Sequence record: MN923124.1
Reading direction: 5' to 3' (one strand)
DNA from: Acinetobacter phage LAPP1
DNA: 49,692 nucleotides
The notes under the pieces are model-generated. The model saw only the letters and a list, made by a program, of their open reading frames with translations, was not told the origin of the DNA and did no database searches. Shown here one piece after another: positions 38,723 through 42,852 of this stretch. Each line of letters opens with the position of its first letter. The first letter of the stretch is position 1. A program made the position numbers and the translations under genes.

Positions 38723-39214
38723 TTAACCCTTCCGATACCCCGCATCATACAGAATCTTAGCCGCACCGATTGACACGCCGGACAACCGAACCATTTCATC
38801 AATCGCGCGTTCCGCTTCGGTGCGGAGTGGGCGGAATTCCCAGTGGTTAGAATCAAGACACACTCCCACTTTGTCATTCCAGAAACCGAATACATGCCCA
38901 TTTTCAACGGCTACGACTCTGAATTTGCGCCAGTCAATCTGAGCAAATTGTTTACTTTCACACTCACAACCAACCGGTGGCAAACCTTCGCTGTTCCATG
39001 CTTGCTTTTGCGATGCGGCGAGTGCGGATTCGTATTGCTGCTTGGTAACCACATCCGTAACCCAGTCATCGCATTTTTTGAGCTTAAACTCACTGCAATA
39101 AACAGAACCCATTTCAAGCAACCGGCCTTCACTATCCTGCTCTACAGCATCAACACCCTCCGGCCAACCGCCACGCTTTGGTAATTCCTGACGCAATAGT
39201 TCAAGTAATGTCAT
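38723..39214 (-). CDS. hypothetical protein (163 aa), minus-strand insert between the portal and head morphogenesis genes
   Basis: ATGA coupling to the upstream gene. Confidence 0.5.
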   Translation of the reverse strand: MTLLELLRQELPKRGGWPEGVDAVEQDSEGRLLEMGSVYCSEFKLKKCDDWVTDVVTKQQYESALAASQKQAWNSEGLPPVGCECESKQFAQIDWRKFRVVAVENGHVFGFWNDKVGVCLDSNHWEFRPLRTEAERAIDEMVRLSGVSIGAAKILYDAGYRKG

Positions 39215-39531
39215 TTTGTCTCTCCTGTTGCTTTGTTGATGATGCGGTTGACCATCTGTAATGTGCCAAATGCGTGACCATCATTTTTGGACCGCTCCCG
39301 AAGATGCGGAATGCATTGTTGCAACGCTTCCAGCAGTTCTGAATTGATTTGGTATGCGTCCGTTGCTAGTTCAACAATGTCAATAGTCGCGGAACCATCG
39401 CGCCCTTGTTCATCTTCACCGTATACTTCGAACTCACCGTTTAAAAAGTCTTCCGAACCGGATTCATACTGTGAAAGTTCGTATAAAAAATACATTGCGT
39501 TGTTACCGTAGGTCAGTTCTCGTTTACCCAT
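39211..39531 (-). CDS. acidic hypothetical protein (106 aa)
   Basis: GGAGATGAGAGATG leader. Own palindromic promoter. Confidence 0.5.
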   Translation of the reverse strand: MGKRELTYGNNAMYFLYELSQYESGSEDFLNGEFEVYGEDEQGRDGSATIDIVELATDAYQINSELLEALQQCIPHLRERSKNDGHAFGTLQMVNRIINKATGETK

Positions 39532-39568
39532 CTCTCATCTCCTGTGATATTATTTAACTAACACGTAC

Positions 39569-39597
39569 ACTCTACACCATACTGACGGAGCCGTCAA
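39569..39597 (-). promoter_or_regulatory. early promoter. Palindrome CTGACGGAGCCGTCAA (39582-39597), -10 TAGAGT.
   Basis: 17-nt spacing. The palindrome abuts the ATG of the plus-strand gene at 39600. Confidence 0.55.
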
Positions 39598-39599
39598 GC

Positions 39600-40481
39600 A
39601 TGTCACGACAAACAGAGCTAAATTATTATCGCCAGCTGAAACAGGTTGCCCAGCTTGTTCGTGAGGATGTAGACGCCAACATCGTTCCACTGGTGAAACA
39701 ACTTGCGCCGGAGTATGCACAGGATGCGGAGTATGTAGAACGACACGTGGTGGGATACCACGATTTCTGTGTGGATGAAGAAGGTAGGGAAATCCACAAT
39801 CACCAACCCTCTTATTATGTCGGTAACATCGTTTGGTGTGATGGATGGAGCGATACCATCACCTCGGCGATTAACCAGTTGCTCACACGGTGGCTTGGTG
39901 CGTTTGCTCGTCGTCAGGCTGAAACCATCGCGTCACAGTTTGTGCAGACTGCCGCGAAGGATAACGCCCGCTCATTCGCTATCAATCTGTACGGCGGTGA
40001 TACACAGCTACAGGAATATCTCAGCGCCGCATCGTATCAGAACGCTAAACTCATTCAGTCCATTCCGGCTCAGTATCTGGAGCAGGTGCAGAACATTGTC
40101 ATGACCAACATGCGTAACGGTATGCGCCCCAGTTACATCGAGGAAGCACTCGTTAAGCAATTTGGTATTACGGAACGTCGCGCTAAATTAATTGCTCGCG
40201 ATCAGACATCGAAAATACAGGGTGACATGAACCGAATCCGCCAGGTTAATTCGGGAATAACTTACTTTAAATGGACCACATCACAGGATGAGCGAGTGCG
40301 TCATAGCCACGTGGAGGTCGCCAAACGTGATGTGGGGTATGGTCCGGGCGTATTTCGATGGGATGATTTGCCGGTTGTCGATGGTGTTCCTACTTTTCCG
40401 GGACAACCATTAAATTGCCGCTGTGTGGCGAGACCAGTCACAGCGGCAGCTGTGGAGCGGTATAAGAAGACTAAAGTCTGA
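39600..40481 (+). CDS. head morphogenesis protein (Mu F / SPP1 gp7-like)
   Basis: WTTSQDERVRHSHVE motif. Confidence 0.65.
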   Translation: MSRQTELNYYRQLKQVAQLVREDVDANIVPLVKQLAPEYAQDAEYVERHVVGYHDFCVDEEGREIHNHQPSYYVGNIVWCDGWSDTITSAINQLLTRWLGAFARRQAETIASQFVQTAAKDNARSFAINLYGGDTQLQEYLSAASYQNAKLIQSIPAQYLEQVQNIVMTNMRNGMRPSYIEEALVKQFGITERRAKLIARDQTSKIQGDMNRIRQVNSGITYFKWTTSQDERVRHSHVEVAKRDVGYGPGVFRWDDLPVVDGVPTFPGQPLNCRCVARPVTAAAVERYKKTKV

Positions 40482-40680
40482 ACAAACCCTTAATCACAAT
40501 TCGTGTTACTTGTGAATTTTTTAATTGCGCTTGCGCTAAAAGATATTCAATGCAGCCGTTAAATAATTCGTTCGCATCAATAAAATCATCATATTCAATA
40601 TTGACAGCGTGATTACCATTGAATATCGCCACGTCTTTTTCATCGTACCCTTCGTAGTATGTAATATAACCTTGTTTCAT
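40471..40680 (-). CDS. hypothetical small protein (69 aa)
   Basis: ATGA coupling. Sixth gene of the operon. Confidence 0.4.
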   Translation of the reverse strand: MKQGYITYYEGYDEKDVAIFNGNHAVNIEYDDFIDANELFNGCIEYLLAQAQLKNSQVTRIVIKGLFRL

Positions 40681-40865
40681 TTCCCACCTCTCACAATGCG
40701 GCACATATCGTTATAGATGACCGGGTGTTTGCGGCAACCGTATAAATTGTTGTTGTAACATTCGCTAAGAAACTTATTCAAATCCAGCATCATGCAATAA
40801 CGAGCATATACGCGATGCTCAAAGCGATTACGACGCCACAGAAACCACTTCAATACCTGTATCAT
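40677..40865 (-). CDS. hypothetical small protein (62 aa)
   Basis: Chained by overlap. Confidence 0.4.
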   Translation of the reverse strand: MIQVLKWFLWRRNRFEHRVYARYCMMLDLNKFLSECYNNNLYGCRKHPVIYNDMCRIVRGGK

Positions 40866-41020
40866 CTATTCATCTCCTGTTGTTTGTAGCATGGCAGAAG
40901 TTTAATCAGCGACTCGGAGGTTTTATTTTTCACCCATTCCGCATCAGCATTTAGCACATAACCGACACCGTTTTCGAATTTACGAGTACATCCAGTGAAA
41001 ATGTTAATGTAGTAGTTCAT
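40862..41020 (-). CDS. hypothetical small protein (52 aa)
   Basis: Start trimmed to an ATG with a GGAGA RBS. Confidence 0.4.
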   Translation of the reverse strand: MNYYINIFTGCTRKFENGVGYVLNADAEWVKNKTSESLIKLLPCYKQQEMNR

Positions 41021-41096
41021 CTGTTCATCTCCGCGCAGAATTTTCCACTTCGTCCAGAGTGTTAAAACACACCGTTGTTGCAATTAACCACCTGGC

Positions 41097-41637: not shown

Positions 41638-41668
41638 CTCTCAAACCCTCTCTGTTGTTGATGAACTG

Positions 41669-41698
41669 AGTATACGTCATCCCTGACGAACTCGTCAA
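41669..41698 (-). promoter_or_regulatory. early promoter. Palindrome CTGACGAACTCGTCAA (41683-41698), -10 TATACT at 18-nt spacing.
   Basis: Family architecture. Confidence 0.55.
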
Positions 41699-41728
41699 CT
41701 TAAATATGCGACCCAAATCACAATATCG

Positions 41729-41965
41729 TCACTCCTGTGGCGGCTCCGGCAATGGTTGCCAGTGTGTGATTACTTTGGGATACATCGCACCGTATTCACT
41801 GAATGCGCACCAAAAATCATTACTGCTAGCGGGTCTGATTCCAGCATTACAATCTGTCACTGTTACCCGCTTACCATCCGTAACTAAAACTTCAACCGAT
41901 TCAAATACTTCGACGTCATTTATTGTGAACGGCATCCGCTCACTACACTTAATCCAGTCTGCCAT
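41729..41965 (-). CDS. DUF551-like small protein
   Basis: MADWIKCSERMP N-terminus typical of that phage family. Confidence 0.4.
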   Translation of the reverse strand: MADWIKCSERMPFTINDVEVFESVEVLVTDGKRVTVTDCNAGIRPASSNDFWCAFSEYGAMYPKVITHWQPLPEPPQE

Positions 41966-42143
41966 ACAATGTCCCCACTCGTTTTAAATCGCGCTGTGCG
42001 TGACAGCTGTAATTACCATCGTCCCATTTGACCCAGTACTGCGGTGGGTCATTTGCAACAACATTTTCAACAGTGCCGGTAACGACACCATTGGGGAACA
42101 ACTTCACAAGTGTCCCGGTTGGGTAACGTGGTATGGTTGTCAT
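41949..42143 (-). CDS. hypothetical small protein (64 aa)
   Basis: ATGA coupling. Confidence 0.4.
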   Translation of the reverse strand: MTTIPRYPTGTLVKLFPNGVVTGTVENVVANDPPQYWVKWDDGNYSCHAQRDLKRVGTLYGRLD

Positions 42144-42301
42144 ACGGTGTCCTCGCCGTTAATCCATTTCTGTAGTATTTTGATAAGTTGTTCGGCTTGT
42201 TCCTTGTCGATTTGAATCCATTCTCCAAATTGTTTTAAATCTGCGTTCCTATCTGTTTTTATTGTTATCGCATTGCATTCGTGCGTTTCTTCAATAATCA
42301 T
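42140..42301 (-). CDS. hypothetical small protein (53 aa). Not in the ORF track.
   Basis: Stop/start overlaps at both ends. Confidence 0.35.
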   Translation of the reverse strand: MIIEETHECNAITIKTDRNADLKQFGEWIQIDKEQAEQLIKILQKWINGEDTV

Positions 42302-42777
42302 CACTCACCCTCCGACAGTTCATTAATCAAGCGCTCCAGATACCAGCGGGCCTTTTTCACATCTTCTAGGCCGTTCTTCTCTTCGTAGCGCCACAGGTAT
42401 TTAACAACATTCGCCACGCATACCGCCTCGATACCGGTTTTACCCACCGTGGCGGCAGTGATAGCGTCGATACATTCAATACCACCTTGTGTGTAGTGTG
42501 ACGGGTGATTGACCACGTCATTGGTTGCTACGGGTTCCCGTTGGGCGATGATTTCTATGTTAGAAGTACCGTTAACGTCTCTTTCACCAAGCGTATTGCA
42601 ATTATCAAGACTTGACTCACTAGGCCACCAAATTCTGTCCCCCACACTTTGCAAACCGTTACAGTTTTCCTCGTATCCGATGTCGCCAGTTCCCAACTGT
42701 CTTATCACTTGCTTACACCAGTCCGGCGCACCTTCGAAGTCTTTCTCGTTACCTTTAATGTAGTTCCACGTGGTCAT
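42301..42777 (-). CDS. DUF3310-like protein with an extra N-terminal domain (158 aa)
   Basis: HPSHYTQGGIECIDAI..VKYLWRYEEKNGLEDVKKARWYLERL. Start trimmed to an ATG with an AGGAGA RBS. Confidence 0.45.
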   Translation of the reverse strand: MTTWNYIKGNEKDFEGAPDWCKQVIRQLGTGDIGYEENCNGLQSVGDRIWWPSESSLDNCNTLGERDVNGTSNIEIIAQREPVATNDVVNHPSHYTQGGIECIDAITAATVGKTGIEAVCVANVVKYLWRYEEKNGLEDVKKARWYLERLINELSEGE

Positions 42778-42823
42778 GTTGTATCTCCTGTGAAATATAT
42801 GTATTATGTGTTTAACGATTATC

Positions 42824-42852
42824 ACTATGGCATACTCTGACGGATTCGTCAA
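42824..42852 (-). promoter_or_regulatory. early promoter. Palindrome CTGACGGATTCGTCAA (42837-42852) abutting the scaffold ATG, -10 CATAGT.
   Basis: 17-nt spacing. Confidence 0.45.

Follow-up and report, generated by a model that had tools for sequence, protein, structure and literature searches.

The head module of Acinetobacter phage LAPP1 (record MN923124.1, whose 49,692 nucleotides are the window analysed here) is interrupted by two hypervariable islands of real, translationally coupled small genes, which lie antisense at the junction between the portal and Mu F-like head morphogenesis genes and at that between the Mu F-like and protease/scaffold genes. Overall, the explanation that we find best, and that we hold with somewhat better than even confidence, is that these are early, swappable antisense islands whose promoters share an operator and would be shut off by a small phage-encoded protein of TetR type (here called mini-TetR). 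The part of this reading that concerns early, promoter-driven hot spots is well supported by the sequence and by comparison with related phages, and the regulatory circuit and the late read-through of the islands are its most interesting aspects.

Two antisense islands split the head module

Using a six-frame list of open reading frames (ORFs) and the minus-strand sequence, we located twelve minus-strand ORFs of 49-163 amino acids (aa) between the portal, Mu F-like and protease/scaffold genes:

39211-39531, minus strand: g1, 106 aa
38723-39214, minus strand: g2, 163 aa
41437-41637, minus strand: g3, 66 aa
41291-41440, minus strand: g4, 49 aa
41097-41294, minus strand: g5, 65 aa
40862-41020, minus strand: g6, 52 aa
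40677-40865, minus strand: g7, 62 aa
40471-40680, minus strand: g8, 69 aa
42301-42777, minus strand: g9, 158 aa
42140-42301, minus strand: g10, 53 aa
41949-42143, minus strand: g11, 64 aa
41729-41965, minus strand: g12, 78 aa

Island A (g1 and g2) occupies the portal/Mu F junction, and at the Mu F/protease junction run C (g9-g12) leads directly into run B (g3-g8). An earlier note on this DNA, made from its letters alone, had described a head module split by minus-strand operons of 12 small genes, and the ORFs bear this out in both position and size. It had also counted three separate operons. Three promoter-headed runs are indeed present, but the second and third (C and B) form one continuous minus-strand block of 2.3 kb that has a promoter inside it and lacks a terminator between the two runs. 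The junctions within the runs are overlaps of 1-4 nt, ATGA or TGATG, in seven cases out of nine, in keeping with the “almost every junction” of that note, the exceptions being g5-g6 (a gap of 76 nt) and g11-g12 (an overlap of 17 nt). Ribosome-binding sites accompany the start codons of all twelve genes, and the reading frames are intact. The stop codon of g8 sits 11 bp within the 3' end of the convergent Mu F gene. The B/C block has a G+C content of 44-46%, and the kilobase spanning island A one of 48%, against ~52% in the flanking head genes. These flanking genes are:

37204-38709, plus strand: portal gene, late (Pfam PF06381, E=2e-95)
39600-40481, plus strand: Mu F-like head morphogenesis gene, isolated between the islands (Pfam PF04233)
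42827-43942, plus strand: DUF2213 prohead protease/scaffold gene (Pfam and annotated relatives)

The true start of the portal gene is probably ~60-100 nt 3' of the TTG at 37204, and the protease/scaffold gene starts at 42827, as against the ATG at 42806 in the ORF list. Genes for a cement protein and then the major capsid protein lie downstream of the protease/scaffold gene, and the small and large terminase subunits were also confirmed by Pfam.

The layout is shared by related phages

The NCBI record “Acinetobacter phage LAPP1” (49,692 bp) encodes a protein with 100% identity to that of g2. Positions 38000-43500 of the window match 73 phage records at 90-93% identity over ~60% of that stretch, and these records are mainly Klebsiella Jedunavirus phages (e.g. 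Geezett, IME346, KB2, ZCEC13 and SBP). Gene order is collinear with IME346 genome-wide. Judged by sequence similarity over 38000-43500 and by gene order, LAPP1 is a Jedunavirus of the JD001 type. For a broader comparison, we used loci from IMG/VR, 34 around Mu F homologues and 69 around portal homologues.

Minus-strand islands stand at both junctions in essentially all loci with a portal identity of at least ~62% (~90 related loci). Minus-strand ORFs typically cover 0.85-0.97 of the islands, which measure 251-1621 bp at portal/Mu F and 553-2875 bp at Mu F/protease. Both islands are also present in Geezett, IME346 and MEW1, and independent annotations of relatives call the same genes. That packaging and head genes are normally contiguous, as the earlier note had assumed, is confirmed by the outgroups, namely the temperate Pectobacterium phage ZF40 and the loci L036, L118, L120 and L129, in which the portal, Mu F and protease genes follow one another directly; one further locus (L098) lacks island A only. 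Islands throughout the lineage and contiguous genes in the outgroups together indicate an old inherited trait of a virulent lineage, not a peculiarity of LAPP1, and by this comparison the layout is inherited across Jedunavirus and its sister clades. The earlier note had presented the arrangement as a pattern of the head region. It is present there, but two further minus-strand islands interrupt the neck and tail genes (see below).

Vibrio phage K137 (L184; portal identity 56%) has three minus-strand islands, one of them between terminase and portal. In this marine phage (L184, 1511-9512) the small genes of the islands, which lie around terminase, portal and Mu F, number 6, 5 and at least 11, and a PAPS-reductase-like gene is among them. 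As a separate observation, a segment of the LAPP1 Mu F gene (39716-39839, plus strand) finds no nucleotide match in most relatives and the Mu F protein has 293 aa in LAPP1 versus ~253 aa in Geezett and IME346, so that even this structural gene has a variable insert.

The content of the islands turns over

The islands had been proposed to be hot spots, and gene turnover is seen in the locus comparison, in the identity profile and in the cluster counts alike. Among 36 related loci compared, g1 and g3 were each found in one locus (L021 in the case of g3), g6 and g10 in none, and g7, g8 and g12 were patchy; g2 is 37-50% identical in most relatives. In a blastn coverage profile, constant anchors (38700-38840, 39150-39240, 39529-39715, 41098-41443, 41634-41723, 41930-42140, 42310-42520 and 42772 onward) alternate sharply with slots left empty in relatives. 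Promoters, core genes and both ends of g2 (5' and 3') make up the anchors, and the breakpoints of identity coincide with the promoter blocks and the other anchors. When 89 loci were pooled, 595 island ORFs fell into 154 protein clusters, of which 85 were singletons. Pfam families among the cluster representatives include an Rv2179c-like exoribonuclease, a dATP/dGTP diphosphohydrolase, P22 NinX and a D12 Dam methyltransferase, as well as homing-type endonucleases (HNH, T5orf172, CapR and DUF723), DUF6378 and DUF551. No recognised anti-defence family was found among the 154 representatives with Pfam.

Not all of the cargo is of this kind. Jedunavirus-level relatives have g4, g5, g11 and the DUF3310 half of g9 at identities of 79-98%. 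The description of the twelve genes as accessory-type small ORFs is thus appropriate for the variable slots but not for these 4/12 (g4, g5, g11 and the C-terminus of g9), which are lineage-core and hence not free-floating accessory genes.

A family of dyad promoters heads the islands

Three promoters of sigma-70 type, one at the head of each run, were recovered by a consensus scan:

39597-39569, minus strand: promoter PA; -35 TTGACG at 39597-39592; dyad TTGACGGCTCCGTCAG at 39597-39582; 17-bp spacer; -10 TAGAGT
41698-41669, minus strand: promoter PB; TTGACGAGTTCGTCAG; 18-bp spacer; -10 TATACT; then leader CAACAACAGAGAGG
42852-42824, minus strand: promoter PC; TTGACGAATCCGTCAG; 17-bp spacer; -10 CATAGT

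In each of them the -35 element is the left arm of a 16-bp dyad that overlaps the -35 and the spacer. A TTGACG-N4-CGTCAA promoter had been claimed for every run; a promoter does stand at each, but all three sites read TTGACG-N4-CGTCAG, one mismatch from a perfect palindrome. PA overlaps the Mu F ribosome-binding site and abuts the Mu F ATG on the opposite strand, and a dyad is found at its position in ~30/34 related loci. PB is internal to the 2.3-kb block and falls within the DNA anchor 41634-41723. PC falls within the protease/scaffold gene of the opposite strand, at codons 4-9 (SDGFVN), and is conserved in relatives; a g9-like protein is encoded by the first gene after PC even in clades with ~58-60% Mu F identity.

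These sites belong to a larger set. The window has 14 dyads (at most one mismatch) against 0.25 expected, a number that none of 100 shuffles reached. In eleven of them a -10 element (TAnnnT or CAnnnT) follows at 17-18 bp and a gene begins on the same strand, mostly 60-83 nt from the start of the dyad:

117, 4730, 18483, 22427, 24889, 39597, 41698 and 42852, minus strand: dyad promoters
26942, 28515 and 31304, plus strand: dyad promoters

They head the DNA-polymerase-side operons, the helicase, methyltransferase, TetR and primase-side operons, and five minus-strand islands in the structural region, including the two outside the head genes:

48903 across the window ends to ~45, minus strand: neck/connector island, dyad promoter at 102-117
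3501-4733, minus strand: tube/tape-measure island, dyad promoter at 4715-4730

The dyad is absent from the minus-strand lysis cassette (16199-17333) and from both late-operon control regions. Orthologous sets of 12-15 dyads are present in IME346 and MEW1, and more distant clades have TTGAC(R)-N4-CG(K)CA variants at the same two positions. The earlier claim of early expression gains from this distribution, the promoter class being that of the replication operons and absent from lysis and late genes, but the assignment is drawn entirely from promoter class. A role of the dyad as an RNA hairpin affecting translation of Mu F or the protease was considered and rejected, as it folds no better than shuffles, and this points to a role at the DNA level. 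We also rejected the idea that such islands always carry the dyad. The TTGAC-N6-GTCA dyad was not found in the islands of the Vibrio relative K137, so the architecture can exist without it. The literature searched, in which Jedunavirus genomes are described as gene lists, contained no account of the dyad promoters, of mini-TetR or of the antisense-island architecture.

Some additional features of these promoters may be mentioned. The MEW1 counterpart of the 3501-4733 island carries genes annotated as DNA-binding or regulatory. Two dyad-like sites on the plus strand (4738-4753 and 9405-9420) lie in the spacer, shifted by 4 bp, of weaker promoters (TTGATT-17-TACACT and TTGTTT-17-TATACT) before tail-gene blocks, and may be middle promoters under the same regulator. 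The leader CAACAACAGAGAGG (or CGACAACAACGGAGG) is common to several predicted early transcripts (e.g. 41645-41660, 18425-18440, 24835-24850 and 31345-31360), and a different one, (T)CACAGGAG, follows PA, PC and the promoter at 9405; the 5' untranslated regions seem to fall into two families.

A candidate repressor of the dyad promoters

One of the dyad promoters precedes a gene for a short protein of TetR type:

28573-28848, plus strand: mini-TetR gene, 92 aa; dyad promoter from 28515, TTGACCACTCCGTCAA, -10 CATACT

Mini-TetR has a TetR_N domain (PF00440; 29.1 bits against a cut-off of 24) and no other domain, and has TetR-family matches in the PDB. No other clear DNA-binding protein turned up among the early-region and tail-island ORFs that we scanned, and no helix-turn-helix domain was detected by Pfam in the twelve island products. 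Its homologues have 91-96 aa, the usual total length in the TetR family being ~190-220 aa. Using a homologue profile, we found the gene immediately upstream of primase in all 55 loci with enough upstream sequence, down to 40% primase identity. An apparent absence from the clade with ~70% portal identity turned out to be an artefact of the 10-kb flank and was rejected, the gene adjoining primase in L221. In nearly all of ~30 divergent mini-TetR variants, including those on high-G+C contigs, a TTGAC-N6-GTCA dyad lies at the -35 of the gene's own promoter. With this pattern of sequence, an autoregulated mini-TetR is a likely candidate for the shut-off repressor of all dyad promoters.

A related operator has been described in Escherichia coli, in which the TetR-family protein RutR binds TTGACCAnnTGGTCAA, a 16-bp box in the same register as the dyad (PMC2475637). 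The RutR box and the candidate operator of the phage are both 16-bp palindromes of the form TTGAC-N6-GTCAA, and both proteins have a TetR-type helix-turn-helix. They differ in the inner operator bases, CA..TG for RutR versus G....C in the phage dyad, and in the protein itself, the phage protein having 92 aa and no ligand-binding domain and RutR not being among its best PDB matches. We also looked for covariation of the TetR recognition helix with the right arm of the dyad. This gave hints only (CGCCA with NNLV or NYYY helices) and was rejected because there are too few independent clades and most variants keep GTCA.

Predicted terminators and late transcription

Two hairpins border the minus-strand runs, and two copies, and only two, of a 115-bp element were found on the plus strand:

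38695-38720, both strands: 10-bp G+C-rich hairpin between the convergent portal and g2 genes, with T/U runs on both strands; free energy (dG) ~-21 kcal/mol
40416-40448, minus strand: hairpin downstream of g8, within the 3' coding end of Mu F; dG ~-22 kcal/mol, z = -3.3; followed by a poor U tract
35025-35150, plus strand: 115-bp element upstream of the small terminase subunit gene (TerS)
280-400, plus strand: 115-bp element upstream of the neck gene

The hairpin at 38695-38720 resembles a bidirectional intrinsic terminator and is annotated as a terminator in phage Geezett, and the early transcript may end at that of 40416-40448. Downstream of the major capsid gene stands a strong terminator, and no known RNA family reached its gathering score in the window. 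Both copies of the 115-bp element contain CTAATTACTATTTTATAAGGGTAT, ATACCCCGTT, GGGGTATGTGG and a 10-bp inverted repeat, and are followed by an extended -10 with a poor -35; they are kept at the same two positions in IME346 and MEW1, and are probably the late control regions. No similar element was found in the window before the Mu F or protease gene. As late transcription apparently starts at two places only, it must read through the islands, and the simplest reading would be a single late head transcript that crosses both islands antisense as well as the hairpin at 38695-38720.

Products of the island genes

All twelve products have homologues, and PHROG matches were obtained for g2, g3, g4, g5, g7, g9, g10, g11 and g12. 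Pooled pairwise comparison with 16-21 relatives gave ratios of non-synonymous to synonymous change (dN/dS) of 0.19-0.27 for g4 (0.19), g5 (0.22), g11 (0.27) and the DUF3310 part of g9, indicating purifying selection. The earlier note had recognised only DUF3310 and DUF551 among these products, and the same two domains are what Pfam returns: the C-terminus of g9 (residues 89-148) is DUF3310 (PF11753; E=2e-19, 69.7 bits against a cut-off of 24), and g12 is a DUF551 protein (PF04448; E=3e-13, 50.9 bits against a cut-off of 22) whose versions in relatives are ~40% identical. The structure prediction and fold search that the note had proposed returned nothing specific for the island products.

The lineage-core genes g4 and g5 carry misleading names in public records. 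“Glycosyltransferase”, used for g4 in several GenBank records, and “outer membrane adhesin like protein”, used for g5, are mis-annotations. The GenBank/RefSeq names of homologues of these 49-65 aa proteins (in L001, L002 and L038 as well) also include “ribonucleotide reductase NrdA-like” and “nucleotide kinase” (the latter for a 75-aa fragment), and we found no domain match to support any of the four names. The third small core gene, g11, belongs to phrog_1690. The g9 family has thousands of members. The N-terminal beta domain of g9 is variable, and the model of g9 (pLDDT 70) gave fold matches that were unspecific and helical only. Residues 89-148 of g9 align with the nucleotide kinase gp1.7 of phage T7 (gp1.7 residues 122-185 only; 34% identity, E=4e-6). 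Only the C-terminal 65 residues of g9 are related, its N-terminal domain being a different, variable beta domain, and kinase activity is not to be inferred for g9.

The g2 family is widespread in phages (2184 proteins at E<=1e-5), and the predicted structure of g2 has helices and a small Tudor/SH3-like beta-barrel. In related phages, the gene is conserved as DNA at its 5' and 3' ends (92-99% identity), and protein identity in the stretch between them does not exceed 50%. Temperate phages carry the family in their early-left region, where it adjoins xis and eaA in the P22-like BTP1; in Pseudomonas phage D3 it is orf65, in the early-left operon, a few genes from a Lar-family gene.

Its neighbour g1 is a rare cassette gene, found in 11 phage records and with a weak match to phrog_1273. 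The C-terminal “ELLEAL...KATGETK” of g1 resembles MEW1_57, the similarity being weak (E=4e-4). MEW1_57 is detected in virions, and we rejected the possibility that g1 is this protein, as just the C-terminal half is weakly alike; the last seven residues are identical because the gene junction is conserved. Together with the ends of g2, the KATGETK common to g1 and MEW1_57 suggests that gene junctions serve as recombination anchors. Virion mass spectrometry of phage MMNM lists MMNM_57, in the slot of g1, and also a HAD hydrolase and a polynucleotide kinase (PMC11633184). Homologues of block B/C genes are not among the MMNM virion proteins, gene order being taken from MEW1 (PMC11633184). MMNM_56 and MMNM_57, which form island A in that phage, are missing from many relatives (PMC8269216).

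As for the remaining variable slots, g3 is Cys-rich (phrog_6261), g7 matches phrog_14771, and g10 matches phrog_13627 (E=1e-13). Homologues of g6 are found in 179 phage records, including jumbo coliphages of 350-380 kb, and related loci are without it; a g8 homologue stands at the same position in Pantoea phage AAM22, and there are others. Pfam, PHROGs and NCBIfam gave no match of any island product to a known family of anti-defence or host-takeover proteins (a dedicated anti-defence library was not searched), and no known anti-CRISPR (Acr) family was found among the twelve genes in the same three collections (a dedicated Acr library was not searched). Sequence searches of the island proteins with PADLOC, NCBIfam and the PDB gave nothing meaningful.

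Proposed explanation and its alternatives

Based on these results, we propose the following sequence of events. After infection, the host sigma-70 RNA polymerase would fire the three near-consensus promoters (TTGACG, 17-18 bp, TAnAnT), and the islands would be expressed early because their promoter family is the same as that of the replication operons. The antisense placement would keep strong early promoters from driving premature expression of head genes (protease/scaffold, capsid), and plus-strand late transcription would silence the island genes by virtue of the same orientation. The dyad TTGAC-N6-GTCA(A) would be the operator of the 92-aa TetR-type repressor which, itself made from a dyad promoter, would accumulate, shut all early promoters and clear the DNA for late transcription. 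The cargo would be a mixture of lineage-core g4, g5, g11 and the DUF3310 domain with freely exchanged g1, g3, g6, g7, g8, g10 and g12. Exchange would most likely take place by recombination at promoters, conserved genes and gene junctions, and the homing endonucleases found in the islands of relatives would probably assist it. The most likely role of the cargo is in early host-interaction and nucleic-acid or nucleotide-metabolism functions, and an anti-defence or host-takeover role, of the kind to which the earlier note had pointed, is no more than plausible for the variable slots.

We put forward only tentatively, as possible rather than probable, a wider view in which this lineage time-shares the DNA of its structural genes. 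About eleven operator-bearing early promoters, five of them antisense in late head and tail operons and one of these five inside the protease gene, would all be shut by mini-TetR, with late read-back over the same DNA. The islands would then be standardised landing pads, built of a promoter, slots for coupled genes and anchors, for host-takeover and anti-defence genes, and at least some of their 150-plus uncharacterised families could be new counter-defence proteins.

Several points weigh against the explanation that we prefer. Both “early” and “repressed late” derive wholly from the classification of promoters, and the literature searched yielded no transcript, transcription-start or protein data for LAPP1 or its relatives. 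No island protein has a known anti-defence family match or a specific fold match, and MEW1_57, in the slot of g1, was detected in virions of phage MMNM (PMC11633184). Mini-TetR lacks the usual TetR C-terminal ligand-binding/dimerisation domain, conservation of the left arm of the dyad is to be expected in any case, as this arm is the -35 hexamer, and Vibrio relatives keep islands without the dyad. Host RutR or another factor could be the dyad binder. Finally, 0.9 kb and 2.35 kb of untranslated antisense sequence plus a terminator-like hairpin would be prone to termination, and late promoters that escaped detection next to the Mu F and protease genes are for this reason conceivable.

Some of these points would be accommodated if the dyad were bound by a host factor (e.g. 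RutR) or were a mere lineage-specific spacer signature, early shut-off being achieved by another route. This would agree with the missing C-terminal domain of mini-TetR, with its best PDB matches, among which RutR does not figure, and with the Vibrio islands that do without the dyad. We nevertheless regard it as doubtful, as almost all lineages examined, high-G+C contigs included (their hosts being probably not enterobacteria, an assumption made from G+C alone), have the mini-TetR gene together with a dyad in its own promoter, and as the inner dyad bases G....C are consistently unlike the CA..TG of the RutR box.

Another possibility relates to the cargo. The conserved island genes (g4, g5, g11, the DUF3310 protein and perhaps g2) could be essential developmental or assembly factors, such as late-promoter activators, head-assembly chaperones or packaged proteins, and the islands core regulatory modules that tolerate cargo. 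The identity of 79-98% of g4, g5, g11 and the g9 C-terminus, which is like that of structural genes, and the purifying selection on them agree with this, and so do the constancy of the g9-like gene after PC and the presence of the island A protein MEW1_57 in MMNM virions; moreover, the weak -35 elements of the late promoters must need an activator. However, ZF40, L118 and L120 have the same head module without islands, and L098 manages without island A. The MMNM proteomics lists no B/C homologue while it does list plainly non-structural enzymes, and the g2 family and DUF551 occur in non-essential early-left regions of temperate phages. On balance, we consider this reading unlikely.

We consider it very unlikely that the islands reflect selfish DNA traffic, in which homing endonuclease genes and their co-converted flanks gather at permissive sites and the variable ORFs are mostly neutral or short-lived passengers. 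HNH, T5orf172/CapR and DUF723 endonucleases do occur in the islands of dozens of relatives (clusters of 36, 30 and 11), 85/154 clusters are singletons, the breakpoints coincide with short conserved anchors, and LAPP1 itself has a DUF723/REase-like 539-aa gene after its capsid gene. Yet none of the twelve island genes of LAPP1 is an endonuclease, all twelve keep their frames, ribosome-binding sites and translational coupling, and g6 and g10 are conserved across very different phage lineages, which argues for a selected function. The 539-aa ORF (45537-47156, plus strand), between the capsid terminator and the connector genes, has DUF723, a treble-clef zinc finger and a REase_MTES_1575-like domain, and resembles homing-endonuclease genes at the same site and within the islands of relatives.

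The weakest alternative would have the minus-strand ORFs arise by chance or shadow coding or regulatory sequence of the plus strand. It might be suggested by the several plus-strand ORFs of 70-113 aa that overlap the islands, but is refuted by the homologues of all twelve products and by dN/dS (synonymous change being four- to five-fold above non-synonymous in the minus frame), as well as by the calling of the same genes in independent annotations.

Relation to described systems and significance

The closest described concept to the early, exchangeable islands proposed here is that of the hyperplastic regions of T4-type phages, which are bounded by PeSL cassettes, a sigma-70-like early promoter joined to a terminator stem-loop (Arbiol et al. 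2010, PMC2839356; Comeau et al. 2014, PMC4122927). In both cases small, variable and mostly unknown ORFs, predicted to be early in LAPP1, lie between conserved core blocks, and a sigma-70-like early promoter cassette is repeated at the borders of the islands, where it coincides with breakpoints (in LAPP1, breakpoints of sequence identity). In the LAPP1 cassette, in contrast, the promoter contains a 16-bp dyad, probably the operator of a protein, and has no terminator stem-loop; its only symmetry is the 5-6 bp dyad, whose RNA fold is no better than that of shuffles. Furthermore, the LAPP1 islands are antisense inside an apparent single late head operon, in a 48-50 kb Jedunavirus unrelated to T4.

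Morons of lambdoid phages are extra genes with their own promoter and terminator between late genes. Like them, the LAPP1 islands are inserted between genes that are adjacent in relatives and have their own promoter, and their G+C lies below that of the flanks. Island A ends at a terminator-like hairpin of its own, and block B/C has only the poor-U-tract hairpin within Mu F. Whereas morons are single genes expressed from the prophage, the LAPP1 islands are multi-gene coupled operons of a virulent phage, antisense and conserved in position throughout the lineage.

The anti-CRISPR islands of Mu-like Pseudomonas phages are sense-oriented. They are variable islands among the head genes (PMC4378225), and anti-CRISPR operons are commonly restrained by a dedicated Aca repressor (PMC9410906, PMC8633003). 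Such acr-aca loci share with LAPP1 a variable island of small, horizontally acquired genes in the head region (in LAPP1 the second island, between the Mu F-like and protease/scaffold genes) and a strong early promoter carrying an inverted repeat, for which an operator role is predicted in LAPP1; in both, a helix-turn-helix repressor is thought to be needed to shut the promoter. Unlike them, LAPP1 has no Acr or Aca homologue that we could find, its islands are antisense rather than sense, and the candidate repressor, encoded at a distance of 10 kb, would act on every early promoter instead of a single locus. The early-left “ea” and “nin” regions of P22- and lambda-like phages share the g2, DUF551 and (in related islands) NinX families, and are likewise made up of small non-structural ORFs whose stop and start codons overlap. 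Those regions lie in the early arm, and in LAPP1 such genes are relocated into the structural module.

If our explanation is true, the islands offer, for a genus of which phages are widely isolated for Klebsiella therapy, a defined catalogue of early accessory genes marked by their promoters, and the 154 clusters, mostly of unknown function, become a short testable list for finding anti-defence and host-takeover genes. The anchors mark sites at which cargo could be swapped without touching structural genes. Likewise, the dyad and mini-TetR would constitute a compact early-to-late switch in a phage without its own RNA polymerase, and the antisense layout poses the problem of late transcription across kilobases of antisense sequence that is not translated. 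Should the islands hold ordinary early genes, the correction of the glycosyltransferase, adhesin-like and NrdA-like labels in GenBank would still stand. As a last observation, LAPP1 is named an Acinetobacter phage, yet its nearest relatives by far are Klebsiella and Escherichia Jedunavirus phages (~91-96% protein identity), and its host attribution may be worth checking.

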